Positions 9,160 to 61,030 of a DNA stretch of 64,000 bases are shown here, in pieces (position 1 is the first letter of the stretch; every line of letters begins with the position of its first letter). The notes below the pieces were generated by a model that was given only the letters and a program-made list of their open reading frames with translations, searched no databases and was not told the DNA's origin. Origin of the DNA: Mobula hypostoma (Eukaryota). A program made the position numbers and the translations under genes. Location: positions 8,494,001 through 8,558,000 of the forward strand of contig NC_086108.1 in NCBI RefSeq assembly GCF_963921235.1. Direction: 5' to 3'.

Positions 9160-9913
9160 TAAGAAGTTTGCAAAGATTCAGCATGAAACTTTGACAGACT
9201 TCTATAGACATGTAATGGAGAGTACGTTGTAGTGGAGAACACCTATTGAAAGGAGGTTGAGACTCGTGGGGAAAGCTCATGTTCCTGCTGACCAAACCAG
9301 TTTGGTAGGATTCTCACTCTCTCATTTGACTGTACGGCTGAGATGGCAATCAGGCCACACCACAACAGGGAATTGTGTGGGTGGGAAGAGCTCCTCTCCA
9401 GAGCATTGAGGGCCTGGTATGGAAACACCAATGCCCAGGAATGGAAAAGCCTACAAAAAGTGGTGGATAATGCCCAGTCCATCACAGGTAAAGCCCTCCC
9501 CACCATTGAGCAGATCTATGCAGAGCACCGTTGCAGGAAAGCAGCATCCATCATCAAGGATCCGTGCCATCTAGACCATGCTCTCCTCTCGCTCCTGCCA
9601 TCAGGAAGGTGGTACAGAAGCCTCAGGATTCGCACCACCAGGTTCAGGAACAATTACCCCACAACCATCAGGATCCTGAACCAGTGTGGATAACTTCACT
9701 CACCTCAACTCTGAACTGATTCCACAACCTACAGACTCACTCTGCAACTCATGTTTTCAGTATTTGTTTTATTTGCATAATTTACCTTCTTTACTCATTG
9801 GTTGTCGGGCAGTCTTTGCTTATGCATAGCTTTTTGTAAATTTTATGGTATTTCTTTATTTTCCTGTAAATACCCATAAGAAAATGAATCTCAAGGTAAT
9901 ATATAGTGACATA

Positions 9914-14018: not shown

Positions 14019-16327
14019 CAATAGACAATAGGTGCAGGAGTAGGCCATTCGGCCCTTCGAGCCAGCACTGCCATTCACTGTGATCATGGCTGATCATCCA
14101 CAATCAGTATCCAGTTCCTGCCTTATCCCCATAACCTTTGATTCCGCTATCTTTAAGAGCTCTATCCATCTCTTTCTTGAAAGCACCCAGAAACTTGGCC
14201 TCCACAGCCTTCTGGGGCAGAGCATTCCATATATCCACCACTCTCCGGGTGAAAAAGTTTTTCCTCAACTTCGTTCTAAATGGCCTACCCCTTATTCTTA
14301 AACTGTGGCCTCTGGTTCTGGACTCACCCATCAGCGGGAACATGCTTCCTGCCTGCAGCGTGTCCAATCCCTTAATAATCTTATATGTTTCAATAAGATC
14401 CCCTCTCAGCCTTCTAAATTCCAGAGTATACAAGCCCAGTCGCTCCAATCTTTCGACATATGACAGTCCCGCCATCCTGGAAATTAACTTTGTGAACCTA
14501 CGCTGCACTCCCTCAATAGCAAGAATGTCCTTCCTCAAATTTGGAGACCAAAACTGCACATAGTACTCCAGGTGTGGTCTCACCAGGGCCCTGTACAGCT
14601 GCAGAAGGACCTCTTTGCTCTTATACTCAATTCCCCTTGTTATGAAGGCCAGCATGCCATTAGCTTTCTTCACTGCCTGCTGTACTTGCATGCTTGCTTT
14701 CAGTGACTGATGTACAAGAACACCTAGATCTCCTTGTGCTTCCCCTTTTCCTAACTTGACTCCATTTAGATAATAATCTGCCTTCCTGCTCTTACCACCA
14801 AAGTGGATAACCTCACATTTATCCTCATTAAACTGCATCTGCCATGCATCTGCCAACTCACCCAGCCTGTCCAAGTCACCCTGCATTCTCATAACATCCT
14901 CCTCACATTTCACACTGCCTCCCAGCTTTGTGTCATTGGCAAATTTGCTAATGTTACTTTTAATTCCCTCATCTAAATCATTAATATATATTGTAAACAG
15001 CTGCGGTCCCAGCACTGAACCCTGCGGTACCCCACTGGTCACCGCCTGCCATTCCAAAAGGGACCCGTTAATCGCTACTCTTTGTTTTCTGTCAGCCAGT
15101 CAAATTTCAATCCATGTCAGTACTCTGCCCCCAATACCATGTGCCCTAATTTTGCCCACTAATCTCCTATGTGGGACTTTATCAAAGGCTTTCTGAAAGT
15201 CCAGGTACACTACTTCCACTGGCTGTCCCTTGTCCATTTTCATAGTTACATCATCAAAAAATTCCAGAAGATTAGTCAAGCACGATTTCCCCTTCGTAAA
15301 TCCATGCTGACTCGGACCAATCCTGTTACTACTATCCAGATGTGTCGTAATTTCATCTTTTATAATTGACTCCAGCATCTTTCCCACCACCGACGTCAGG
15401 CTAACGGTCTATAATTCCCTATTTTCTCTCTTCCTCCCTTCTTGGAGAGGGACAACATTAGCCACCCTCCAATCTACCGGAACTGATCCTGAATCTGTAG
15501 AACATTGGAAAATGATTACCAATGCATCCACGATTTCTAAAGCCACCTCCTTAAGTACCCTGGGATGCAGACCATCAGGTCCTGGGGACTTATCAGCCTT
15601 CAGACCCAACAGTCTATCCAACACCATTTCCTGCCTAATATAAATTTCCTTCAATTCATCCATTACCCTGGGTCCTTTGGCCACTATTACATCTGCGAGA
15701 TTGTTTGTCTTCCCTAGTGAAGACAGATCCAAAGTACCTGTTCAACTTATCTGCCATTTCCTTGTTCCCCATAATAAATTCACCCGCTTGTCTTCAAGGG
15801 CCCAATTTTGGTCTTAACTATTTTTTTTTCCCTTTTCACATACCTAAAGAAGCTTTTACTATCCTCCTTTATATTCTTGGCTAGTATTCTTACCTTCGTA
15901 CCTCATTTTTTCTCCGCGTATTGCCTTTTTAGTTACCTTCTGTTGCTCTTTAAAAGTTTCCCAATCCTCCAGCTTCCCAATCGCCTTTGCTATGTTATAC
16001 TTCTTCCCTTTTATTTTTATACTGTCCATTACTTCCCTTGTCAGCCACGGCCTCCCCTTACTCCCCTTAGGATCTTTCTTCCTCTTTCTTCCTCTTGCAC
16101 CTTCCGCATTATTCCCAGAAACACTTGCCATTGCTGTTCCACTGTCATCCCTGCTAGGGTATTGTTCCATTGAACTTTGGTCAGCTCCTCCCTCATAGCA
16201 CCACAGTTCCCTTTGTTCAACTGTAATACTGACACTTCCGAGTTTCCCTTCTCCCTCTCAAATTGTAGATTAAAACTTATCATATTATGGTCACTACCTC
16301 CTAATGGCTCCTTTACCTCGAGGTCCC
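14019..16327 (-). mobile_element. CR1 LINE, 5'-truncated ORF2 with frameshifts
   Basis: VYLDFQKAFDKVPH, SGVPQGSVLGPQLFTIYINDL, SKFANDTKL, EPLGGSDHN; CR1 3' UTR and short tail at about 14019-14035. Confidence 0.95.
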
Positions 16328-18620: not shown

Positions 18621-20863
18621 TACAGCCAAATCAGCTTTGAGATCACTGGCATTACTTTCTCTCCAGCCCTTTACCTTTCCTACCAATCTAGCTTCACCTA
18701 TCACCCTTTAATTGATTTAGATTAGATTATGAGGACACGTAGTCCTCTTTTATTGTTATTTAGTAATGCATGCATTACGAAATGATACATTATTTCCTCC
18801 AGTGTGATTTCACAAAACACAGGACAGACCAAGACTGAAAAAAACTGACAGAACCACATAATTATAACATGTAGTTACAACAGTGCAACAATACCATAAC
18901 TTGATGAAGAAGTCCGTGAGCACAGTAAAGTTCAAAGTCTTTCAAATATCCCACATCTCATGCAGGCGGGAGAAGGAAGAAAAACTCTCCCTGCCATGCC
19001 GACCACAATCCGACTCTGAGTCGTCCGAAAACTTCGAGCTCTGATCAGCTCTCCGACACCGAGTACTGACCGCCATCTCTGTCCAAACAATTTGATCTCC
19101 TATCTGGTCGCCAACAGCAGGCAAAGCCAGGGATTTTGAGGCCTACCCTCAGAAAGATTCCCGACCGCACAGTAACAACAGCAGCGGACGGGCGTTTCAG
19201 AAATTTTTCCAGATGTTCCTCTGTGCTTTCACGTCCATCTTCATCAAATCAGTATTGTCCACGGCCCCTATTTAACAGATACGATATCATTTTTCATCGG
19301 AGAGCTGTGCACGTGCGGCGCGCTGCCATCTCCTCCTGCCAATAAATAAATAAATTATTTATTGAGTTACAGCACGGAACAGGCCCCACTGGCCCTTCGA
19401 GCTGCACCACCCAGCAATCCCCCGATTTAACCCCTGCCTAATCACAGGACAATTTACAATCACCAACTGGTATGTCTTTGGACTGTGGGAGGAAACCAGA
19501 GCACCCGGAGGAAACACACGCGGTCACAGGGAGAATGTAGAAACTCCTCACCGGCAGCAGCAGGAATTGAACCGGGGCCGCTGGAATGGCAAAGCGCTGT
19601 GCCAACCACTACGTAACCGTGCCGCTACCTTCTAGCGATCCTCCTCCCCCTCCCCCTCCATCTTTTTAAACTGGCGCCTCCCCTCCGACACCTTCTCAGT
19701 CCAGATGAAGGGGCTTGACCCAAAATGGCGACTGTTTACTCCTCTTCATAGGTACTGCCAGACCTGCTGAGTTCCTCTAACATTTTGTGTGTGTGCTGCT
19801 TTTAACATCACTGGCATTTGTCATGAAATTTGTTGTTATGCAGCAGCAGTACAAATTGCAATACAAATACTCAAAACTGTAAATTAACTTAAGAATTATA
19901 TATATGAATAAAAGGTACTGAGGTAGTGTTCATGGATTCAATGTCCATTCAGAAATCGGATGGCAGAGGGGAAGAAGCTGTTCCTGAATCGTTGAGTGTG
20001 TGACGTCAGGCTCCTGCACCTCCTCCCTGATGATGGCAACGAGAACAAGGCATGACCTGGGTGATGGGGGTCCTTAATTCAAAGTACATTTATTGTCAAA
20101 GTATGTACGCAGTATACAACCTTGAGATTTGTCTCCCCCCGCAGACAGCCCCGAAAGAAAGAAACACTATGGAACCCATTCAAAGAAAAACATCAAACCC
20201 CCAACGTGCAAAAGGCACAAGAAAACGAACAAAAACACAGAATATAAAACATCAAATCACATATTAATGATGGATGCCGCATTCTTGAGACATCACTCCT
20301 TGAAGATGCCTCAAAAATTCAAAGCGCACTTGTTCTCAAAGTATGCATAAATTATACAACCTTGAGATTCGTCTGCTTACAGGCAGTCGCAAAGCAAGAA
20401 ACCTGAAAGAACTCACTTTAAAAAAAACAACACCAAATGTGCCGAGAGAGAGAGAAAAAACAAATGGTACAAACAATAGAAGCAAATAAAGCATTGAGAA
20501 TGAAAGTGAGCCCATGGATACGAAGCTGGAGCAGACTCACAGTCTCAGGCTTAGTTCTACAGCGTAGTTAAACATAATTGAGCTATTTTAAATGAAGTTA
20601 AGTGTTATTAAGCGGTCAACAAAAAGATGTCTTTCCTGGCTATCTCTAACTCTAATCAACTTGAACACAAAGAATCATTACATAACTAAAACTTTGCACT
20701 TTCACTACGCCCACACACATGACGAACTACCATAATAAAGATAATAAACGCACAGCACAAAAATACAATGCAGACAGAAAATAGATATATGGCTCCTACA
20801 AGTTGGAAAGTGCATTTGAAAGTGAGTCTGTAGGTGGTGGAATCAGTTCAGTATTGAGGTGTG

Positions 20864-21417: not shown

Positions 21418-23924
21418 ATAATCCTATGAATAGATTTTTATGATATTATTTATTCATTTATTTACTGAGATACAGTGTGGAAAATGTCCTTTGAGCCATG
21501 TTGCCCAGCAATCCTCGAGGAAGGGGGTGGAGTTTAGGAAGTTAGGCACCTAACAGCAACTCCTTTTCTTGCATCTTTGGAAACAGGTCCATTCCTACCT
21601 TTGATATCTTTTTTCTCCCCCTTTCAAGGTTCTTTTGAAGACCCTGACCTGGAGTTACACGCTGACTTAGGTTCTTTGTGGAAATGGGACCCACCGTCAG
21701 GGCCTCACGGCCAGCCAGTCTTTGCCATGCCGAGGACGAGGCCTGGAAGACTAGCGCGCCTTCAGGGTGCTGGATTTTTGTGGCTCTGGAGACGGGCTGA
21801 TTCAAGGCCGGTGCTGCTGCCTGATGTGTCGTGGGAGAACACGGAAGATCAGAAACGGCGAGCTGGCTGCTGACTGTGTGCCCAGAGACTCAAGTTCATT
21901 GGGCACAGGGCTTGGAAAAAGCGACACAGCAGAAGGTCTATCCTGGGCCCAACATTTTGAACCAATTACAAAGAAGGCACAGAAGTGGCAATATTTCATA
22001 AGGACTTTGAGGCAATTTGGTTTGTCACCAAAGGCTCCAGCAGATTTCTACAGATGTAAGATGTTGAGGTAGAATTCTGACTGATGGCATCACTGTCTGG
22101 TATGGAGGCTGCAACGTACAGGACCGGAAAAAGCTGCGAAAGATTGTGGTCCATCATGGGCACTAGCTTCCCCACAATCAAGAACATCTGCAAAAGGCCT
22201 CAAGATGCGGCCTCCATTGTTAAGGACCATCAAGCATCAGGCCCCGATGGGGCTCTGAAAACCTGTCCAGTTGCATTCGTATCTATGGTGATGAAGTGCT
22301 TTGAATGCTTGGTCATGGCCAGAATCAACTCCTGCCTCAGCAAGGACCTGGGCCCGCTGCAATTTGTCTGTCACCACAATCGGTCTACAGTGGACGCCAT
22401 CTCGCTGGCTCGCCACTCGTTCTTGGGTCACCTCAACAATCGTAATACCTATGTCAGAATGCTCTTTATTGATTAAAGCTCAGCTTTCAACACAATCTTA
22501 CCCCCAGTTCTAATCAACAAGCTCCAAAACCTGAGCCTCTGCACCTTCCCCTTCAACTGGATCCTTAACTTCCTCACCAGAAGACCACAGTCTGTGCGGC
22601 TCAGAATTCACATCTCCTCGCACCTCAAGGATGCGTGCTCAGCCTGCTCTCTCTCTACACCCTCTATCGTGTGGCTAGGCACGGCTCAAACGCCGTCTAT
22701 AAAGTTACCAATGACACAACTACTGATGGCAGAGTTAGAGTATGACAGATCAGCTGATTGAGTGGAACATTGCACTCAACGTCAGCATGACTGAGGAACT
22801 GTTTGTGGACTTCAGGAAGGGGGAATCGAGGGAACAGACACCAGTCCTGGTACAACATCCACCAGTTTCAAGTTGCTGGGTGTCAACATCTGAGGGTCTA
22901 TCCTGGCCCCGACGTATTGAGCAGTTACAAAGAAGGCACAACAGTGGCTGTGTTTCATTAGGAGTTGGAGGACAATTGGTGTATCACCAAAAACACTCAC
23001 AAATTTCTATGGATGTACTGTGGAGAGCATTCTAACTGGCTGTATCACTGTCTGGTATGGAGGGGCCACTGCACAGGACCGAAAGCTGTAGGAAGTTTCA
23101 ACGTCAGCCGGCTCCATCATGGGCTCCAGCCTCCCCAGCACCCGGGACGCCTTCAAACAGCGGTGTCTCAAAAACACAACAAATATCATTCAGGACCCCC
23201 ATCCCCCAGGACGTGCCCTCTTCTCATTGCTACCATCAGGGAGGAGGTACAGGAGCCTGAAGACACACACTCAATGAACCCATGATCACCACCTCACTTT
23301 CTTGCTCTGGTTGAAACATCGACTTTTATTCCCCTCCACGGATGCTCTCTGACCTGCTGAGTTCCTCCAGTATTTCGAAGTTCAAAAATTCAGGGTAAAT
23401 TTTATGATCAGAGTACATATATGTCACCACATACAACCTGAGATTCATTTTCCCGTGGGCAATCTCAGCAAATCTATGGAATAGTAACTATATTACTATA
23501 ATAGTATATTATACTATAATAGTAACAATAAACTGGACTGGTCAAAGGACACTGAGGCTGTCTACAAGAAGGGTCAGAGCCATCTCTATTTCCTGAGGAG
23601 ACTGAGGTCCTTTAACATCCGCCGGACGATGCTGAGGATGTTCTACGAGTCTGTGGTGGCCAGTGCGATCATGTTTGCTGTTGTGTGCTGGGGCAGCAGG
23701 CTGAGGGTAGCAGACACCAACAGAGTCAACAAACTCATTCGTAAGGCCAGTGATGTTGTGGGGATAGAACTGGACTCTCTCACGGTGGTGTCTGAAAAGA
23801 GGATGCTGTCTAATTTGCATGCCATCTTGAACAATGTCTCCCATCCACTACATAATGTACTGGGTAGGCACAGGAGTACATTCAGCCAGAGACTCATTCC
23901 ACCGAGATGCAGTACTGAGCGTCA

Positions 23925-26900
23925 GAGTTACAAAATACACATGGACTAAGATGTTAACTCTCCTGTGCTATCACCAGTGGGATCATCAGTTGATCTGCCA
24001 CCTATCTTCAGGAGTTTCGGTCCGCTTATGATCAAGACTCCCTCGAGGTGGTGGGCCAGCAGTGCTAAAGCACCACCTCCCACTGGTGAGCTTAAAAACT
24101 TGGCATCTGCCTCTATCGGAGTTGTTGGTCACTTCCATCCAACAGATAGTCTGCTCTTCAGGTGTCTATGCAAATACTGAAGGGTTGGCAAGATATGTAT
24201 ACACTGTCTGACTATCTGCCCCTCTGGACGTACTTGGTCCACACCCATGCTGATCCTTTCTCTGCTGCCTCAGCTACAGCCCTGCTGGATGACTTGATCT
24301 CTCTTCTAGTGAAGCCAAGGTCACGCAGCCACTTCTGGAAAGTGAATACAATGAACCCACGGCAGCTTACTTCGAATGGGTAGCATGAGACCTTCCACCC
24401 TCTATCTCTGCACTCTGACCTTAACTCTGCATATTTGGTTAACTTGCGCTCATGGGCTTCGTCGATGTTGTCTTCCCAGGGGACTGTGAGTTCACCAATA
24501 ACCACTTCTCTACTGGTGTCAGACCATACGATTATATCTGGACGCAATGTGGTGAAAGCTATTTGCTCCGGGAAACTGCCTTTCCCGTCCAGGTTGGCCT
24601 TGACACACCAATCATTGGCTGAAGAAAGTATGCTTGATCGTGAGCCTGCGCTGTACACCCTTGTCTTGGAGCCTTTTTTCACAAATGATATGTGATGTTC
24701 TGTGCAGCATGGGGCATGAGATAAGTTGTGCTGCAGTACTCTCTGCTCAACCGCTTCTGTCACAACTTTGAGAACATTGTTATGTCTCCAAGTGTACATG
24801 CCGCTGGAAAGATTGACTCTGCATACATTGAAAATATGTTGAAGTGTTCCTCCTCGCCACAAGCTGCACACCTGTCTGTCTTATCTTCATACCAGGTGCT
24901 GAGGTTGGCAGGTGTTGGGAGCAGATTGTACGCTGCTCTGCATAAAAAAGAAATGCGGAGCGGTTCCATCTGCCACAGAACATTCCAAGGTAGGTGTCGT
25001 TGTTCAACACTTTCCCACCAGGTCTAAGCCCCTTGTTTGGCCGGGCCAGCTGTTTTAGTTAACCTCTTCTCCTCTTCTACCGCTCGTACTTCTTGTGTTA
25101 CAAGCTCACGGCGCTCCTTACCTGTAGAAGATGACCACCACTTGTGGGTTGTCCATCCAAGTCCCTGGCGGTCTAGCTGGATAGCCCCAACCGTCTCCTT
25201 GTGCTTCAATCTGGACTCTGCCTCATCCACTGCTACATGGGCTGACCACTTCCTGCCTGATCTCACATCCGGCTGGGTGTTCTTGATGACAGGGTCTTTT
25301 GAGTCTCGAAGCATCAAGAATGATCTTACCTTGGCTACCTTGACCTCTTCAACAAGGGATTGCACTGGGATGGTAAGCTTTGTCTGGCTACTGTGGATTG
25401 CAACACTGGTGAGGCTGCTCGCTACTCCAAGCCACTTCTTCACATACTTCCGTTCCATTGCCTCAACGTGGGACATTGACACTTCATAGACAGTTAGTGG
25501 CCACATTATCCGTGGCATCAGTCCGTACTGCAAGCACCACAACTTCAACTTGCCAGGCAAGCCACACTTATCGACAGATATCAGACCTCTGCTGATCTGT
25601 TCTCCTGTCTCTTGAACCCTCTTGGTGTCTCTCAGCTCCTCTGTGTACCATCGCCCGAGGCTCTTAACTGGTTGGACCTGAATGGATGGAATCTCCTCTC
25701 CAGAAAGGGTGAAATGAAAGTCAACCAGCTTTCCTCTCCTAAGAACAAGGCTCCTTGACTTCTTGGTCTTGAACTTCATTCTTCCCCAATCCATTAGCTC
25801 CTCAAGTCTAGATAGTACACTTTCCACTGCCTCCGTGCTGGGACCCAAAAGGGTAAGATCATCCATGAACGCTCGTATTGGTGGTAACTCCCCTCCGCCA
25901 TCATGTGCGACACCTGGTCCCACTGATTCTGCAGCCCTCACAATGACCTCCATGGCTAACACAAAAAGGATGGGTGAAATCGCACATCCCATTGGGATTC
26001 CAACATCCAAGCTCTGCCACCTAGTTATAAACAGCTGAGTGGAAAACCTCATCCGGAAATCGTTGTAATACTGCATAACAAAGTTCCTCACCTTAGCAGG
26101 AATCCATAGGAATTCCATCGCAAACTCAATCAGGACATGGAGAACAAATCCATACACATTTTCCAGATCAAGCCAAACTACAGCCAGATTTCTTCTCAAC
26201 CTTTTCGACTCCTGGATGGTATGTCATATCATACTAGAATGTTCAAGGCATCCCGGGAAGCCTGGTATTCCTGCCTTCTGCACAGATGTATTTACTAATC
26301 CATTCCCTATCACAAATGAAGATATTCTTTCTGCCAGAATGCCAAACATAATCTTCCCCTCTACCTTCAGGAGTGAAAATGGTCAGAACTGATTCAATGT
26401 AGAAGAATTCTCTTCCTTCGGGATGTATACTCCTTCAGCCTCACTCCATGACAAAGGAACAACACCTTGTCTCCACACCACCTTTAACAATCTCCACAAG
26501 TATTTCCTCAGCTCCTCACACTTCTTGAACACCTTATACGGCACTCCATTAGGTCCTGGCACTGAGCCTGACCTTGCCCTTCTGATGAACTGTTCGACTT
26601 CTGCCAGTTTGGGTTCTGACAGATCGAAATTCACTCCTGGCTTGGTAGGCTTCACAAGCCCTGAAATGTCAAGCAAAGGAGCCTCCCGCTGTTCGTTCGA
26701 GTAAGTGCTTGCCAGCTGATCCTCAAGTTCTTGTTGAGAGATGTTAAGCTGCCCGCTCTTACTTTGTTCAAACAATTTCTTTGTGAACTAGTGAGGGTTC
26801 TCAAAGAACGACTTTCTTGCCTTCTCTCTCTTCTTTCTCTTTTTACGTTGTGACTCCGCACGACGGAGTGATGCTAACTTTATTCAAAAATGCTCTCAGA

Positions 26901-27294: not shown

Positions 27295-28384
27295 TCATAG
27301 GAAGTCATTCCTGCCTGTGGCCATCAAACTTTACAACTCCTCCCTTGGAGGGTCAGACACCCTGAGCCAATAGGCTGGTCCTGGACTTATTTCATGATTT
27401 ACTGGCATAATTTACATATTACTATTTAACTATTTATGATTCTATTACTACTTATTATTTATGGTGCAACTGTAATAAAAACCAATTTCCCCCGGGATCA
27501 ATAAAGTATGACTATGACTATGACTATGACTATGACTATGACTATGACTATGACTATATCGGGATCAATGAAAGATCAACCAGAGTGCAGAAGACAACAA
27601 ACTGCAAATGCAATTATAAATAAATAGCAATAAATAACAAGAACATGAGATAGGGAGTCCTTAAAGTGATATCATTGGTTGTGGGAACATCTCAATGGAT
27701 GGGGCAAGTGAGTGTAGTTATCCCCTTTGTTCAGGAGCCAGATGCTTAGGGAGCAGTAACTGTTCTTGAACCTGGTGGTGAGTCCTGAGGCTCTTGTACC
27801 CTCCTCCTTAATGGCAGCACTGAGAAGAGAGCATAACCTGGGAGGTGGGGATCCCTGATGAGGGGTGCATTTCATGTAGATGTGCTCAATGTTTGGGAGG
27901 GCTTTGCCCATGATGTACGGGGCCAAATCCACTACAAAAGATGTATACTTGAGAGGAATTTTGGAACAATTTCCTGTAGCCCACAGAGAACTGCCAACCG
28001 GTACGTCTTTGGACTGGGGGAGGAAACGCCTTACGGGCAGCAGAGGAAATTGAACCCAGGTCACCTGAACTGTAAAACGTTGTGTGAACTACAACACCAT
28101 CATGCTGCCCTAATTCTAACATAATCATTTTTTAATATATTGCACTGCTGCTGCAAAACAACAAGATACATCATGGTTATTACAGATGATTCTGTTAATA
28201 TTTAGTGCGAGTGAACTAACGTAGTATCTGACTGTGACCATTAGAGGGCAGAGCGGCTCTAGTCAAGGAGGGGAAGTTCCTCATGCCACAGTGCCCGCTG
28301 ATTGGGCAATCTGATGCCAATAGAGGACAATCGTGTGATTGATTGGAAACAAACCAGTGGGTAAATCAATTGGTAAAATTGAGA

Positions 28385-29039: not shown

Positions 29040-30320
29040 ACCAGCACATAAATGTCATCACAAAGAAGACAAGACAGCACCTTTAGAAGTTTGTGCAGAT
29101 TTGGAATGTCATCTAAAACTTTGACAAACAGTGGAGGGTATCCAGACTGGTTGCATCACAGCCTGGTATGGAAACACCAATGTTCAGTCATGGAAAAGTT
29201 TACAGAAAGTGATGGATACGGCCCGGTCCGTCACAGGCAAAACTCTCCCCACCATTGAACACACTTACAAGCAGTGCTGCCACAAGAAAGCAGCATCCAT
29301 CATCGGGAAGCCTCACCATCCAGAGCATGCTCTCTTCTCACTACTACCATCGGTCACGAGGTACAGGAGCCTCAGGTCCCACACCACCAGGTTCAGGAAC
29401 AGTTATTACCCTACAACCATCAAGTCCCACACGACCTGGTTCAGGAACAGTTATTACCCCACAACCATCAGGCTCCTGAACCAGTGTGGATAACTTCACT
29501 CACCACAATGAGCCTCAGGTCCCACACCACCAGGTTCAGGAACAGTTATTACCCCACAACCATCAGGCTCCTGAACCGCTGTGGATAACTTCACTCACCA
29601 CAATGAGCCTCAGGTCCCACACCACCAGGTTCAGGAACAGTTATTACCCCACGACCATCAGGCTCCTGAACCAATGTGGATAACTTCACTCACCACAATG
29701 AGCCTCAGGTCCCACACCACCAGGTTCAGGAACAGTTATTACCCCACGACCATCAGGCTCCTGAACCGGTGTGGATAACTTCACTCACCACAATGAGCCT
29801 CAGGTCCCACACCACCAGGTTCAGGAACAGTTATTACCCCACAACCATCAGGCTCCTGAACCGGTGTGGATAACTTCACTCACCACAATGAGCCTCAGGT
29901 CCCACACCACCAGGTTCAGGAACAGTTATTACCCCACGACCATCAGGCTCCTGAACCAGTGTGGATAACTTCACTCACCACAATGAGCCTCAGGTCCCAC
30001 ACCACCAGGTTCAGGAACAGTTATTACCCCACGACCATCAGGCTCCTGAACCAGTGTGGATAACTTCACTCACCTCAACTCTGAACTGATTCTATAACCT
30101 ACAGACTCACTTTCAATGACTCTACAACTCATGTTTTCAATATTATTTATTTATTTTTAATTTGCACAATTTGTCTTCTGCACATTGGTTGTTTGTCAGT
30201 CTTTGTATAGATTTTCATAAGTTCTACTGTATTTCTTTATTTTCCTGTAAATGCCTGCAAGAAAATGAATCTCAAGGTAGCACACACTGATGTATACGTA
30301 GTTTGATAATAAGTTTACTT
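29040..30320 (+). mobile_element. Rex1/Babar-type LINE 3' end containing a 95-bp tandem expansion
   Basis: TGCITAWYGN..HHPEHALFSLLPS..RYRSLRSHTTRFRNSYYPTTIRLLN. Many related fragments elsewhere (about 8350-9910, 21930-23300, 27560-27950, 45340-45720, 54050-54790, 58750-59100, 63234-63620). Confidence 0.85.
29365..30073 (+). repeat. 95-bp tandem array (about 7 units)
   Basis: Same unit and junction as the 50.8-kb array. Confidence 0.95.
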
Positions 30321-40842: not shown

Positions 40843-41115
40843 GGCACGTTAGTGTAGTGGTTAGCACAACGCTTTCCAGTGCGGGCAACCCAGGTTCAAT
40901 TCCTGCCGCTTCCCGTACAGAGTTTGTACGTATTCTCTGTGACTGCGTGGGCTTCCTCCGGGAGCTCCAGTTTCCTCCCACAGTCCAAAGACGTACCGGT
41001 TGGTAGGTTAATTGGTCTTTGTAAATTGTCCCATGTTTAGGCTAGTGTTAAGTCGGGAAATTGCTAGGTGGCACGGCTCGAAGGGCCAAATGGCCTACTC
41101 CACACATAAAATAAA
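40843..41115 (+). mobile_element. tRNA-derived SINE (related copies at about 12150-12340 -, 13655-13790 +, 19370-19625 -)
   Basis: A-box-like TAGTGTAGTGG and B-box GGTTCAATTCC, conserved body, short A-rich tail. Confidence 0.75.
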
Positions 41116-44577: not shown

Positions 44578-45784
44578 TTTCCGTAACAATTTTGTTTGAC
44601 TAGTCAGGGTTGTTAGCCCTGAGCTGAACCCCCGACCTTGGAGGAATGATGGACCATTCACTGAATGTTTTTCGTTTTTGCACCATTCTGTGTAAACTCT
44701 AGAGACTGCTGTGTGTGAAAATCCCTGGAGATCAGCAGTTTCTGAGATACTCAAACCATCCCATCTGGCAACAACAACCGAAGTCAGTGAGATTATATCT
44801 CCTCCCCAATCTGATGTTTAGTCTGAACAACAACTGAACCTCTCGACCATGTCTGCGTGCTTTTATGCATTGAGTTACTGCCAGATGATTGGCTGATTAG
44901 ATATTTGCATTAACGAGCAGTGCACAGGTATACCTAATGAACTGGTCACTGAGTGTGTGGTACTGTACGAAACTCTTCGGCACCCTAGATTTTAAATGGT
45001 TTCAGATAGTGTGGCCTCCACAGAGCCCTGATCTCAACATCACCGAGGCTGCCTGGGGTTACTCGGAGAGACTGAACAAACCACACATCCTGGGACTGTG
45101 TCCCCTGGTCTCTCCAGCCAAGAGAAATGCCCAACCGGTCAGTCCCTCTCAATATCGGCTCCACTAATTCTGTCCAGAGAGCCAACTACTGCTTCGAACA
45201 GGGGTGGCTGTTCCGTTTTGTAACTTCAAAACTTTAAACTAATTCAACAATGCTTAATCAACCAATACATATATACACAAAATATAACTAAAATATTAAA
45301 GACACAACAGTGGCGAACGCACGAGTGAAAATGTGACATCAGAATCAGATTTATTATCACTGGCATGTGTCATGAAATTTGTTAACTTAGCAGCAGCAGT
45401 TCAATGCAATATACAATTATATAGAAAAAAATGAATAAGTAAATTGATTACAGTAAGTATATATATGCATATTAAACTGATAAATTAAAAATAGTGGAAA
45501 AACTGAAATAATATTTTAAAAAATGAGGGGGTATTTCAAGGCTTCAGTGTCCATTCAGAAATCAGATGGCAGAGGGGAAGGAGCTGTTCCTGAATCGTTG
45601 AGTGTGTGCCTTCAGGCTCCTGTACCTCCTCCCTGACGGTAGCAATGAGAAGAGGGCACGTCCTGGGTGGTGGGGGTCCTTAATGATGGACGCCGTCCTT
45701 CTGAGGCATCGCTCCTTGAAGATGTTTGGGTTACTATGGAGACATTCAGGGCTGCCCATTGATTCCTTAAACTACACTCATAAT

Positions 45785-53243: not shown

Positions 53244-54927
53244 AGACTCCTGTACCTTCTGCCCGATGGTGGTAGTGAGAAGAGAACATGGGTGGGATGG
53301 GGGTGGAGTCCTTCCTGCTACGAGAGGAGGGTGTCTGCATGTGATGGTCTCTCTCTCTCTCTCTCGCCACTCCTGAGGGAAGGTCCCTGTGTTTGAATGT
53401 CCCTCTCCTTCTCTCTCCCTTGATGCTATGCGAAGATTGTACCAAAATTCTGGGTCTGCAGTTTGTGGATTGGTCTAATGAACATGTAGATGAACTGAAT
53501 ATGTACTCTTCAATTTTGTGTTTTAATTTCTGTGTTTTTACTCATTCTCTCTTCTTGTTGCTTTCATGGATTTTCTTCTGTGCTGTTGGGGGGGGTGGGG
53601 GCGGTGGTTATGGTTTTCTTTGAACGGGTTCCAGGGTTTTCTTTGTTTCGTGACTGTGGGAAGGCGAATCTCAGGGTTGTACACTGCAGACCTACCTTGG
53701 TAATAGATGGACTTTGAATCTTTGAATCCTTTATGATGGATGTTGGTTAATGAAGAGAACAGGGTGGAGGTCCTTGATGATGGATGCTGCTCTCTAGAAA
53801 TTTTAAATAAAACATAGAAGCAAAAAAACACAAAGCAAATACTGAGTAAGCCAAGCAGCATCTGCGTAGAGAGTAAAATTTGGATAGGAAAGGTTTGGAG
53901 GGACCAGCTCGGAAAGACAACTTGGTCAGCATCATTGAGTTGGGCTGAAGGGCCTGTCTTCATTGCTGAGATTCTAATGTTCTCTTTTCCAACGAGTTGA
54001 CAATGACAGTAAACCATTGGCTGTAAGTCAGGTTTAGGTGTCACTACAGGTGCACGAGCCAGTCCTCACTGGAGGATCAGAGGTAGAGAGGGTCGGCAAC
54101 TTTAAATTCCTCAGCATTATTATTTCAAAGGACCTGTCCTGGACCCAGCATGAAAGTGTAATTGTGATTAAAAAAACACACATCAGGGCCTCCCATTTCT
54201 TAAGAGTTTGCGGAGATTTGACATGACATCTAAAACTTTGATAAACTTCTATAAATGTGTAGTGGAGATTGTACTGTCTGGCTGCATCACAGCCTGGTTA
54301 TGGAAACACCAAAGCCCTTGAACAGAAGATCCTACAAAACATAGTGGATTTGGCCCAATATATCACAGGTAAAGCCCTCCCAACCATTGAGCACATCTAG
54401 ATGAGATGCTGTTGCAGGGAAACAGCATCCATCATCAGGGACCCCCACCACACAGGAGATGCTTTCTTCTCGCTGCTGCCAGCAGGAAGAAGGAACAGGA
54501 CTCACACCACCATGTTCAGCAACAGTAATCACCCCTCAACCAGCAGGCTCTTGAATAGGGGATAACTACACTCACTTGCCCATCATTGAAATGTTCCCAC
54601 AACCAATTATCTCACTGAAGGACTCTTTATATTGTTACACAGTCTGTTGTCTTCTTCACTCTGGGTGTTTTCTCATTGATCCTGTTACAGTTACTGTTCT
54701 ATAGAGTTGTTTAGGTATGCCTACAAGAAAATGAATCTCAGGGTTGACATATATGTACTATGATAATAAGGTTTACTTTGAACCTTGAACTTGCTGTGTA
54801 GAGATTGTGGAAATTGCACCCATTCCCTTGTAGATGGTTTCTAAATGACCATACCACTATCAACTGTGTTTTGCTGACACAGACTTGAGAATGGTCTACT
54901 CGTATCTATATACTACTAAAACTCTCA

Positions 54928-55158
54928 TCCGCAGTGCCGCCGATGCGGCAGAGAGGGCCTCAAGATGGCTGTGGCTCAAAAGAGGGGAGCCATGGAGTCC
55001 TAAATAGCGAGCCATCTGGACACAAGCTGGGGTCTGATCAGCCCCGGCTGGGTCACCTGGAGGAGGTTGTATGATGTTGAAAGACCCGGAACACCTGATG
55101 ATTCCAGGAACATCACTGAAGACGTGTCCAGAAGCATCAGTAGATGTACGTACACAGT
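54928..55158 (+). mobile_element. Hero-clade 3' fragment nested in the Helitron 5' end
   Basis: Translates AADAAERASRWLWLKRGEPWSPK* (stop 55005-55007), homologous to the C-terminus of the 60593-60907 and 24212-24871 ORFs; followed by the structured 3' UTR. Confidence 0.8.
55015..55132 (+). ncRNA. Hero 3' UTR hammerhead-like motif (copy B)
   Basis: UCUGGACAC/GUGUCCAGA; hairpin AGCUGGGG..CCCCGGCU; GGGUC/GACCC; CCUGGA/UCCAGG with GA/GA kink-turn; GUA-UGAUGUU/AACAUCA-CUGAAGA; GAAA mutated to GGAA. Confidence 0.65.
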
Positions 55159-59218: not shown

Positions 59219-60569
59219 ATTTTCACTTCTTGAAAATATACACACAAAATGCTGGAGGAACTCAGCAGGTCAGGCAGCATCTATGGAAATGAATAAACAG
59301 TCGATGTTTTAGGCCGAAACCCTTCTTCGGGACTGAAAAGGAAGGGGGGAGATGCCAGAATAAAAAGGTGGGGGGAAGGGGAAGGAGTCTAGCTGGAAGG
59401 TGACGGGTGAAGCCAGGTGGATGGGAAAGGGAAGGAGGAGGGGACACAGAAGAAGGTGATAGGGAGGCGTGAAGGGGTAAAAGGCCAAAGTGGGGAATAG
59501 AGAGGGAGGGATGGAGAAACAATTATGGGAAGGAGAAGTTGTTGGATATCGAAGCCGTCCTCAATGCTGGGAGACTCCTGCCGATGATGGAGCTGGCTGA
59601 GTGTATAACCCTCTGCAGCTATTTCCGATTCTGTGCACTGGAGCCTTCACACCAATTAGAATGGTCTCCACCGTACATCTGTAGGAATTGACTTGAGTCT
59701 TTGTTACATACCAAATCTCTTCAAACCCCTAATGAAGTATAGATGCCTTCTTCATGATCTCCTTCTTCTTGTAGTGGTACTGTTTAAAATTTTATTTCTC
59801 TGAGTTCTTCCAAAACGCTTCAAAATACAGATTTGTCACTATGGTCTCAGGATGGCTCTGACTTCTGAGAGAGGATATTGGTCAATATTGAGGCCTAAGG
59901 TCAAACCTGTGATCGGTGAGTCCTGGGACCGATATCCAGAGGTCGGGGAAGTCCACAGCTCGGCCAGTCTGGAATAGGTAGCCCGAAAGGTCAAAGACCG
60001 AAGTCGGCCTGTCCAGAGGTCGAGGACAATTCTGGGTCAGAGACTGGGGGTTGGAAGCTGATGTCTGGGAGGCTGAGAGTCCGAGGCCCAGAGGTGGGAG
60101 GGTTGTGTGTGTCTGTGAGGGGATTGGTGGCTGGTAAAGGAGTTTGTTTCAAACACAAGAGATTCTGCAGATGCAATCCAGAGCAACACACACAAAATGC
60201 TGGAGGAACTCAGCAGGTCAGGCAGCATCTATGGAGAGGAATAAAGAGTTGACATTTTGGGTTGAGACTTTGGGACTGTTTTTTTTTGTTTCTAATTTCA
60301 TTGTTGTGTTGTAGTTTCCTTGTTGTGTTCTGTGTTGTTCTACTGAACATGGTGGTCACATTACGGACACTTGCGGGCTGCCCCCAGCACATCCGTGCCT
60401 TTATGTAAGTAGTGCATTTCACTGTATGAAAGCCCATAGCCTGTTTCAAAGCTGGAGGCCAACCACAAGCCCAGTCCAGATCACCAGCAGGCCTGCTCGC
60501 CACAGTGTTGACTGGCAAATGAAAGTCAATCTTGGCAAGCAATTCAAGTTCCCTGACTTCATTGCTCAC

Positions 60570-61030
60570 AGTCCCTGAGGCCGGACAAGCAGGTGATCAT
60601 GGTGGCACTGACAGCTCCTTGGGAAGACTGGATTGAGGAAGCGTTCCGGTGTAAGAAGGGCAAATACCAGGAGCTGGTAGAGCTCTGTCAGAGACAAGGG
60701 TGGAGGGCACGATGCCAGTCTACAGAGGGGTGGGGTGTAGAGGTTTTGCTGGCTGCTCTCTGTCGAGCCTACTCTCTCCTTGACATTATGGGGGCTGCAA
60801 AGACCCTCAGGACCGTCACACAAGCTGTTAAGCAAGCCTCCAGGTGGCTATGGATCAAGAGGCGTGACCCGTGGACCAGTGCTGCTGGGACACAAGCCGG
60901 GGCCTGATCAACCCTGCTGGGTCACCTGGGCGAGGGTCCCTGGTGTTGAAAGACCTGAAACACTCAATGACCCCAGGTTACATCACTAATGATGTGTCCC
61001 AATGCATCCCGGGGTGTATCTCAGCACGTA
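60570..61030 (+). mobile_element. Hero-clade 3' fragment (endonuclease C-terminus + 3' UTR)
   Basis: ORF 60593-60907: VALTAPWEDWIEEAFRCKKGKYQELVELCQRQGWRARC..AVKQASRWLWIKR. Confidence 0.85.
60886..61001 (+). ncRNA. Hero 3' UTR hammerhead-like motif (copy C, decayed core)
   Basis: UGGGACACA/UGUGUCCCA; GGGUC/GACCU-GAAA; ACCUGGG-C-GA / AAU-GA-C-CCCAGGU kink-turn; UGGUGU/ACAUCA-CUAAUGA (G>A); cleavage triplet mutated. Confidence 0.6.

Follow-up and report, generated by a model that had tools for sequence, protein, structure and literature searches.

The 3' untranslated region (UTR) of a widespread group of retrotransposons, probably of the Hero clade, contains a conserved RNA domain in which the whole catalytic core of the hammerhead ribozyme is kept in a wiring different from that of types I, II and III. 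The fold, its core and their conservation are shown; covariation is heavy across the clade, and there are thousands of genomic copies. The elements bearing it were found in many marine animals, and from its letters the domain may represent a natural version of the hammerhead that is new. It is some 100-145 nt long, belongs to the 3' UTR of Hero-like (R2-group) non-LTR retrotransposons and arranges six helices, with two pseudoknots, around the hammerhead core. Regarding its function, we lean towards a hammerhead-fold 3' recognition module for the element's own reverse transcriptase, with the scissile bond sealed in the copied RNA; this judgement draws on the likeness to R2 elements discussed below.

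Structure of the domain in the window

The window analysed comprises 64,000 nt of Mobula hypostoma DNA and carries three copies of the domain, named C1, C2 and C3, whose parts are listed in Table 1. In C1 the hammerhead core is complete (CUGAUGA, GAAA and GUC) and surrounded by six helices. The three strands bearing the core, all on the minus strand, are GGGAG-U-C-UUGAUC (24042-24030), GAAA-CUCCU (24018-24010) and GAUCAA-CUGAUGA-UCCCACUGGUGA (23995-23971), and the outer partner strand is UCACCAGUGGGA (24089-24078). The sequence-only reading of this DNA had predicted a cut between 24036 and 24035, a position that re-inspection of the letters found to be right, and its four helix comparisons across the window copies all hold. 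On the other hand, its suggestion to repair GGCCC to GGUCC concerned the wrong strand. In most members of the family the sixth helix (H5) consists of GGCCC paired to GGGCC, and the repair was misplaced because C1 itself carries the mutation, an A at 24021. Members of the C1 family in contigs of relatives, with 90-97% likeness, served to identify the deviant letters of the window copy. The RNAfold z-score of the nested fold of C1 was weak (-1.9), as given by a program that is blind to pseudoknots.

The same layout had been claimed for 55015-55132 and 60886-61001. The layout was recovered in both copies, but they belong to plus-strand elements and are mutated in the core within the window; C3 was assigned to the plus strand because the endonuclease remnant upstream of it reads in that direction. 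Most members of the C2 and C3 families keep an intact core. A pairing of GGGUC with GACCC, taken together with the first GAAA, was considered as stem III of C2 and C3 and dropped, since the family majority places the second GAAA in the core and GGGUC/GACCC in H5.

Table 1. Coordinates in the window of the three domain copies, the parts of C1 and the associated protein-coding frames.
Feature	Positions	Strand	Remarks
Whole RNA domain, copy C1	23971-24089	-	Covariance model 73.8 bits, E 3.5e-19; intact core, single helix mismatch at 24021
Outer helix II, 5' strand	24078-24089	-	Pairs with 23971-23982
P2 hairpin	24058-24077	-	Adjoins helix II and H5 without gap
H5 5' strand GGCCC (pseudoknot)	24053-24057	-	Pairs with 24019-24023
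H4 5' strand CCACCU	24046-24051	-	Pairs with 23998-24003
Stem III 3' strand GGGAG, with U16.1 (24037) and C17 (24036)	24036-24042	-	Predicted scissile bond between 24036 and 24035
Stem I 3' strand UUGAUC (pseudoknot)	24030-24035	-	Pairs with 23990-23995
H5 3' strand	24019-24023	-	Occupies the place of the stem II 11.x strand; GGACC in C1, GGGCC in the family
GAAA (G12-A15.1) and stem III 5' strand CUCCU	24010-24018	-	
Bulged strand of kink-turn-like internal loop between III and H4	24004-24009	-	Opposite CGA at 24043-24045
H4 3' strand AGGUGG	23998-24003	-	
Stem I 5' strand GAUCAA and core CUGAUGA (C3-A9)	23983-23995	-	
Outer helix II, 3' strand	23971-23982	-	Begins directly after A9
3' tail to element end	23929-23970	-	Family likeness ends near 23929-23932
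C-terminal CCHC and PD..ExK endonuclease frame	24212-24880	-	Same broken element as C1
Reverse-transcriptase frame	25024-26223	-	Same element as C1; RVT_1, E 6.2e-11
Copy C2	55018-55129	+	Covariance model match 55007-55134, 83.8 bits; GGAA replaces GAAA
Copy C3	60887-61000	+	Covariance model match 60877-61004, 59.1 bits; CUAAUGA, C at 16.1
Endonuclease remnant upstream of C3	60468-60859	+	tblastn

Hammerhead core and junction

The core was evaluated by a leave-one-out scan of 42-46 distinct sequences, in which each of the letters C3, U4, G5, A6, G8 and A9, G12, A13 and A14, and A15.1-U16.1 was constant or had at most four deviants. The only variable positions were N7 (U in 25, C in 9, A in 6 and G in 2) and H17, which was A in 16, U in 11, C in 15 and G in none of 42 sequences. 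The four G present in column 99 of the model alignment all come from rows shifted by 3 columns (L126, L127, L129 and L180). Thus CUGANGA, GAAA and UH are conserved across the families, as would be expected from the first reading. The neighbouring C15.2-G16.2 is kept as well, in 63 and 66 of 70 rows, respectively. As in hammerheads, stem I is formed by the strand 3' of H17 with the strand 5' of C3, and stem III by the strand 3' of A15.1 with the strand 5' of U16.1.

The strand order is UH, GAAA, CUGANGA in 49 of 49 sequences and in the three window copies, which is no circular permutation of types I-III. The earlier proposal that this order forces two pseudoknots was confirmed, and these correspond to helices I and H5. 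A single stem II is absent: the partner of the strand that follows A9 is the 5' end of the domain, whereas the strand before G12 pairs with the upstream strand of H5. The result is a gapless four-way junction, in which not one unpaired letter separates columns 18-163, 19-76 and 77-117 and the position of G12/A9. At this junction the first letter of H5 is G in 64 of 68 sequences, and position 11.1 is C in 59 and U in 9.

In the resulting fold, the strand after A9 runs into the outer helix, which closes the domain, and the strand before G12 comes from the 5-bp H5, whose closing G-C(11.1) pair stands in for G10.1-C11.1. The P2 hairpin links the outer helix to H5. Helices I, H5 and H4 come together at their distal ends in a further, three-way junction, with H4 joined to III through a loop, often kink-turn-like; in this manner stems I and "II" are tied together. 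A kink-turn consists of a C stem, a 3-nt bulge, tandem G.A/A.G pairs and an NC stem, with NNN-GA in the bulged strand and GA beside the C stem in the other strand. With stem III in the role of the C stem and H4 in that of the NC stem, 30 of the 49 sequences fit this consensus and 19 do not.

Covariation of the helices

In the MAFFT alignment (A2) gaps fell inside the helices, and for this reason it was used only as the seed of the covariance model R1. Over 70 distinct sequences, 82.6% of the cells were paired, compared with 58.2% in shuffles, none of 500 shuffles reaching the observed value; the covariation score was 0.559 against 0.191 in shuffles, and slid controls gave 31-44% pairing. Covariation was observed in all six helices, both pseudoknot helices included. 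The latter two lie outside the covariance model and yet are paired at 90.8% (H5) and 89.6% (I), with changes on both sides, which bears out the earlier suggestion of a selected RNA.

An anchor-based table of 49 sequences led to the same picture, with 93-96% pairing of each strand with its own partner versus 47-65% with shuffled partners. Stems I and III were paired at 96.3% and 92.7% in these 49 sequences, and at 89.6% and 83.4% in the model alignment. When own and foreign partners were given equal search freedom, the full helix was recovered with the own partner in 38/49 sequences for H5, 42/49 for H4 and 35/49 for helix II, versus 12.6%, 20.5% and 6.7% with foreign partners. Additional pairs beyond the helix ends occur only at the chance rate, so the helix lengths are fixed: 6 bp for stem I and 5 bp for H5, whose far ends are tied together. 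From one family to another every helix position changes and pairing is retained; copies belonging to a single family are nearly identical owing to common descent. The many G-U pairs indicate that the structure belongs to the sense RNA.

Host element and distribution of the domain

The elements carrying the domain encode, in a single ORF, first a reverse transcriptase, then a CCHC motif and lastly a PD-(D/E)XK endonuclease, an architecture that agrees with the definition of the R2 group (reverse transcriptase plus PD-(D/E)XK endonuclease) given in PMC3636483. An alignment of 13 endonuclease sequences showed the invariant columns C..C..H..C, RH, PD, E and K..Y. Homologues were found in amphioxus, sea urchin, teleosts and scallops, and the copies are dispersed, both of which we take to fit the Hero clade. 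The name Hero fits the protein architecture and the host range, and the assignment is a probable one. The RNA domain lies about 70-250 nt from the endonuclease ORF, on its 3' side.

The first look at the genome gave 1489, 1301 and 2664 candidates for the three families. A strict pattern scan of both strands of 347,979 nt produced 69 matches, every one of them within the three families, and the covariance model run over the 64-kb window matched at the places of C1, C2 and C3 only. This confinement excludes a chance origin of the motif. Among 80 related metagenome loci, the covariance model found the domain in 65, always after the endonuclease and on the strand of the ORF. Conservation in the 3' UTR of Hero-type elements, which the sequence-only reading had claimed from the window, therefore extends far beyond its three copies. 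Of the 15 loci without the domain, 9 have less than 150 nt of downstream sequence; in the other six the covariance model found no domain despite 218-800 nt downstream, an observation that sits uneasily with a recognition module. In a quick tree of the endonucleases, the domain is present in all branches. The search of viral contigs gave no relative.

None of 59 genomic copies starts at the predicted cut (0/39 in the C1 family and 0/20 in the C2 family), and all copies examined continue across it, in agreement with the earlier statement that the element is copied past this site. Copies truncated at other nearby points do occur (6/35). The end of one metagenome contig, L157, coincides with C17; six contigs in all, L157 among them, end inside the domain, and the chance of such an end is about 5%. 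This end fits cutting in vivo, and as such it speaks against a mere recognition module.

Comparison with known ribozymes and 3' UTR RNAs

To our knowledge, every natural hammerhead reported to date is a circular permutation of one three-way junction. The domain resembles hammerhead types I, II and III (Rfam RF00163, RF00008 and RF02275-7) in its full core, with H17 never G and N7 free, in the way stems I and III join the core, and in the preference for C15.2-G16.2. It differs from them in its strand order, in the replacement of stem II by a four-way junction (outer helix, P2 and H5) and in its two pseudoknots; moreover, no Rfam model matches it, and cleavage is here only predicted. Rfam models gave no match in the whole window at the gathering score, in 23800-24300 with E allowed to reach 10, or in 20 loci with a limit of E 1. 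The literature search found no description of a Hero/REL-endo hammerhead or of a permuted hammerhead, and a wider search was likewise without this motif. The domain is described neither in Rfam nor in the papers searched.

Other RNAs share some of these characteristics. The twister ribozyme, another small RNA, likewise has two pseudoknots and occurs in several natural permutations, all of them circular, but its core is unrelated and there is no Rfam match. In the 3' UTRs of mammalian Clec2, Martick et al. (2008) reportedly described a hammerhead that is discontinuous; its topology is that of a canonical type III whose loop is very long. As in that case, the core is part of a 3' UTR and its substrate strand precedes the enzyme strands; here, however, the GAAA strand sits between the UH and CUGANGA strands. 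The 3' UTR of R2 elements conserves structure more than sequence and serves the start of target-primed reverse transcription. R2 belongs to the same retrotransposon group, with a reverse transcriptase and then a PD-(D/E)XK nuclease, and PMC12222951 reports that R2-group elements bind a pseudoknotted 3' UTR, a domain similar in this respect to ours. In contrast, no hammerhead core has been reported for R2, and protein binding of the present domain is putative. Finally, Penelope-like elements carry hammerhead motifs, according to Cervera and de la Pena (2014), and "HHR_core" cases are mentioned for Naiad elements by Craig et al. (2021, PMC8557442). These motifs likewise place hammerhead core letters near the 3' end of a retroelement, but the elements have another reverse transcriptase, a GIY-YIG nuclease and canonical motifs of type I; for the Naiad cores that do not fit, no fold was proposed.

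Possible functions of the domain

The reading that we favour, with some reserve, is that the domain acts in cis as a 3' module: the reverse transcriptase encoded by the element would recognise it and thereby begin target-primed reverse transcription, in the manner of R2. The core would fold like a hammerhead, with its scissile bond intact in those RNA molecules that are copied, whether through slow cutting or through a bias of the tied stems towards re-ligation. It should be mentioned that conservation of all catalytic letters and the lack of G at 17 are expected of an active ribozyme and would be unneeded for a mere binding platform. If the domain does not cut, it would exemplify how a ribozyme fold can serve in nature as a scaffold recognised by protein and, whether it cuts or not, it offers the first structural handle on 3'-end marking by Hero-type elements.

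An active ribozyme, that is, a new natural hammerhead, not circularly permuted, cutting or cutting and resealing at H17 in the life cycle of the element, appears to us less likely but is a serious rival. All thirteen core positions obey the hammerhead rules, with variation confined to N7 and H17, and C15.2-G16.2 and the end of L157 point in the same direction. In addition, natural hammerheads have a contact between stems I and II at about the distance of the ends of a 6-bp stem I and a 5-bp H5, the lengths fixed in this domain. Stage-Zimmermann and Uhlenbeck reportedly found in 2001 that a stem I-II cross-link shifted a hammerhead towards ligation, and such a tie would reconcile activity with intact copies. 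Against activity, no copy holding the part after the cut starts there, though others are shortened at nearby points, and a cut would part the ORF from the 3' end required for copying. There is also no tested precedent for a backbone break between 11.1/G12 and 10.1, and no Rfam hammerhead model matches.

Tentatively, and with no greater assurance, the domain could be a fourth natural hammerhead topology, catalytically competent, in which the tied stems I and "II" make a cut-and-reseal switch: retrotransposon RNA to which its own reverse transcriptase is bound would remain sealed and be copied, and unbound RNA would be cut. Variants of the active ribozyme are conceivable in which RNA unheld by the element protein is cut, or in which transcripts are sorted between translation and copying. 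If there is such a switch, with its thousands of copies in animal genomes, the hammerhead core would tolerate a backbone break at the joint of stem II and G12 within a four-way junction. Cutting or ligation would also widen the known range of structures for a ribozyme that is among the best studied, and searches that rely on the three canonical descriptors would be missing a class.

A convergent likeness, in which the fold is real and the constant letters represent another tertiary motif or a protein contact with no hammerhead geometry, seems to us improbable. No single helix corresponds to stem II, a defining part; the junction has five arms instead of three, the Rfam hammerhead models find no match, and RNAs bound by proteins commonly have constant letters at their junctions. 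Nevertheless, eleven constant letters are correctly placed relative to two helices, the free positions are the same as in hammerheads, and the G-C pair beside G12 is also kept; a rough estimate of the chance of this is below 1e-5 per structured RNA.

Lastly, an inherited repeat sequence or a DNA-level signal with no RNA function would be compatible with the near-identity of copies by descent in one family, but it is already contradicted by the covariation between families whose helices differ throughout and yet pair, by the partner tests, by G-U pairs that fit the sense RNA alone, and by the fixed position relative to the ORF in the 65 loci, located on many contigs.

Domain and host element

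The hammerhead-like domain C1 lies downstream of the reverse-transcriptase and endonuclease frames of its element. Read 5' to 3' on the minus strand, it consists of the outer-helix strand UCACCAGUGGGA and the P2 hairpin, followed by GGCCC, A, CCACCU, CGA; GGGAG-U-C, UUGAUC, AUAAGC; GGACC, GAAA, CUCCU, GAAGAU; AGGUGG, CA, GAUCAA; and finally CUGAUGA and UCCCACUGGUGA. By motif comparison, the C-terminal frame carries a PD-(D/E)XK nuclease pattern as in the R2 group, in the terms of those passages of PMC3636483 that define the group. Its relatives are proteins of 1000-1100 amino acids in amphioxus, a sea urchin, teleosts and scallops. This host range agrees with that of the Hero clade, and we call the element Hero-like, the clade name being putative.

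Features of the window
Feature	Position	Strand	Remark
C1 domain	24089-23971	minus
Reverse-transcriptase frame	25024-26223	minus	upstream of C1; RVT_1, E 6.2e-11
C-terminal endonuclease frame	24212-24880	minus	upstream of C1; CCHC + RPD...ELTVPWE...ERK..KY
Match to endonuclease frame	60468-60859	plus	tblastn
C2 domain	55007-55134	plus	placed by R1
C3 domain	60877-61004	plus	placed by R1
Kink-turn-like loop, C1	24043-24045 with 24004-24009	minus
Kink-turn-like loop, C2	55061-55064 with 55097-55103	plus
P2 with self-complementary word	55025-55049; 60895-60918	plus
3' tail, C1	23929-23970	minus	small hairpin possible
3' tail, C2	55130-55155	plus	small hairpin possible
3' tail, C3	61001-61030	plus	small hairpin possible
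Second reverse-transcriptase remnant	14488-15213	minus	other retroelement
Repeat frame	27672-28088	minus	upstream of C1 element
Places resembling repeat frame	54302-54562; 29170-29484; 9421-9657; 45542-45730; 19459-19602; 40864-41004

The sequence-only reading had described six helices. In place of the GGACC seen in the window copy, the C1 family carries GGGCC, a perfect complement to GGCCC; therefore the sixth helix (H5) is real and its mismatch is a deviation of the window copy, while the proposed repair of GGCCC to GGUCC was placed on the wrong strand. For the two other copies, given as 55015-55132 and 60886-61001, the order of parts holds as in C1, with the correction that both lie on the plus strand, according to tblastn and the covariance model R1 (46 sequences, nested helices only). 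Both are decayed, C2 having GGAA instead of GAAA and C3 having CUAAUGA plus a C at 16.1; the core is intact in most members of their families (majority lines).

Two other window features were observed. The distant reverse-transcriptase remnant shares 23% identity with the C1 reverse-transcriptase frame. The repeat frame has 29-47% protein-level likeness to six further places and is thus part of some other repeat.

Conservation of the core and covariation

The core was examined one position at a time, each being left free with all the others kept as a requirement (42-46 distinct sequences). U4, G5, A6, G8, A9, A13, A14 and A15.1 were invariant, and C3 (C 42, U 1), G12 (G 42, A 2, U 2) and U16.1 (U 42, A 1) nearly so. 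Variation fell chiefly on N7 (U 25, C 9, A 6, G 2) and H17 (A 16, U 11, C 15, G 0). In hammerheads positions 7 and 17 are free and G is barred at 17, exactly the pattern found here; C15.2 and G16.2 are also preferred (63/70 and 66/70 rows).

Across the 70 distinct rows of the model alignment, the fraction of cells that paired was 82.6% vs 58.2% in shuffles, none of 500 shuffles equalling it; the covariation score was 0.559 vs 0.191, and slid controls paired at 31-44%. Helices I and H5, which cross the others as pseudoknots and were not built into R1, paired at 89.6% and 90.8%, with both sides changed in 6/6 and 4/5 of their pairs. The low figure for H4 (63.6%) is due to a register shift of one column between families. 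Since G-U pairs are frequent, the structure is assigned to the sense RNA. In an anchor-based comparison of 49 sequences, each strand paired with its own partner vs a shuffled one at 96.3% vs 50% (I), 92.7% vs 65% (III), 93.5% vs 64% (H5), 95.9% vs 53% (H4) and 94.8% vs 47% (outer helix II). Full helices formed with the own partner in 38/49 (H5), 42/49 (H4) and 35/49 (II), vs 12.6%, 20.5% and 6.7% with foreign partners allowed equal search freedom. Core conservation and covariation, whose absence would have refuted the sequence-only reading, are both present across families, the pseudoknots included.

Layout of the fold

The path around the core runs from the stem I 5' strand through CUGANGA, the outer helix, P2, H5, GAAA, stem III and U-H back to stem I; it is a closed junction and no impossible knot. 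No unpaired letter separates model columns 18-163 (outer helix), 19-76 (P2), 77-117 (H5) and G12/A9, and therefore a perfect four-way junction takes the place of stem II. The first H5 pair mimics the hammerhead G10.1-C11.1, being G in 64/68 rows, opposite C (59) or U (9) at 11.1.

The far ends of H5, H4 and I come together in a three-way junction, whose linkers measure 0-3, 0-3 and 1-7 nt. The internal loop joining H4 to III fits the kink-turn consensus (GA beside III in one strand and, in the opposite strand, III followed by 3 nt and GA) in 30/49 sequences, and a sharp bend there would allow H4 to fold back and reach I and H5 at their far ends. Lengths are fixed at 6 bp (I), 5 bp plus A15.1-U16.1 (III) and 5 bp (H5); these helices do not lengthen, because one more pair is possible in only 16/49, 10/49 and 19/49, about the chance rate. 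We infer that the fold is a compact cage, with a tie between stems I and 'II' at 5-6 bp from the core, comparable to the loop-loop contact of natural hammerheads at about the same distance.

P2 holds a 6-nt self-complementary word in 30/49 sequences (UGAUCA 15, UGGCCA 6, GACGUC 3), as in the window and in metagenome loci L141, L154 and L131; it lies in the apical loop where inspected, over differing stems, which suggests that the RNA may dimerise by loop-loop (kissing) contact. As chance alone would give about 1/3, the notable part is the recurrence of identical words.

Copy number, distribution and novelty

A strict pattern was defined as 5 nt, U-H, 6 nt, linker, GAAA, 5 nt, spacer, 6 nt and CUGANGA, with at least 4/5 pairs in stem III and 5/6 in stem I. 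It matched 31 C1-type, 29 C2-type and 9 C3-type copies, and nothing outside these families in 347,979 nt scanned on both strands. In the genome (3.48 Gb, 200 contigs), the three families gave 1489, 1301 and 2664 first-look candidates; 40 scored per family had identities of 99%, 96-97% and 84-89%, respectively. Copy-to-copy likeness ends about 25-45 nt 3' of the domain, with no A-tail. The window tails likewise end without an A-run, and each can, as judged by eye, form a small hairpin. Words of the family at 23925-24335 occur in public runs labelled as at least 9 other organisms; likeness was 90-97% in the three compared, so the family is common to related species.

Metagenome contigs were scanned with A1, in which 13 endonuclease domains are aligned; this gave 473 stretches, 409 encoding a relative, from which the best 80 loci were kept. 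The strict pattern matched 50 times, always on the ORF strand, and 49 matches lay 3' of the endonuclease match by about 70-250 nt (most 70-130), or about 600-700 nt in two loci. The other (L197) is likely false, since it lies upstream. R1 gave 71 matches (65 of the 80 loci, three window and three genomic copies) and none in the 64-kb window besides C1, C2 and C3. Nine of the 15 remaining loci have less than 150 nt downstream; the other six look like individual losses or rearrangements rather than a domain-free clade, because their neighbours in a quick tree of the endonuclease are sisters that carry the motif.

No Rfam family matched the domain (window and 20 related loci). In the freely accessible papers covered, we found no hammerhead in Hero or REL-endo elements and no 'permuted hammerhead'; the wider search of these papers gave only canonical hammerheads, in Penelope-like elements and retrozymes. 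A parallel case may be the hammerhead cores of Naiad elements, which fit no descriptor according to the relevant passage of Craig et al. 2021 (PMC8557442).

Possible function

The domain sits at the 3' end, is followed by no A-tail, is present in each RNA that is copied and belongs to a relative of the R2 group; together these features point to a module acting in cis, which the reverse transcriptase of the element would recognise, by analogy with what the pertinent part of PMC12222951 describes for R2. Such a module would be built on the hammerhead fold, with the scissile bond intact when copied.

The main rival reading is an active, reversible ribozyme. Three points favour cutting, the first being the core's adherence to hammerhead rules. 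Secondly, contig L157 (1216-1279, contig end) stops exactly at C17, after GGGAG-U-C, although the record may be RNA or DNA and the chance is about 5%, as it is one of six contigs ending inside the domain. Thirdly, a cross-link between stems I and II reportedly turned the hammerhead towards ligation in one study. The portion of the review PMC12118343 on this matter says only that a cross-link locking the bent form raises activity. However, none of the 39 C1 copies (35 + 4) that include the 108 nt past the predicted cut starts there, other truncations falling at 22, 127, 133, 189, 207 and 245, and 20/20 C2 copies run across it, which agrees with the earlier view that the element is copied past this site; moreover, both cleavage products would remain joined by four helices. 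The intact C1 copies, the intact C2 copies and the joined products all speak against cutting in RNA that undergoes copying. Mere convergence of the letters is less probable than either the recognised module or the ribozyme.
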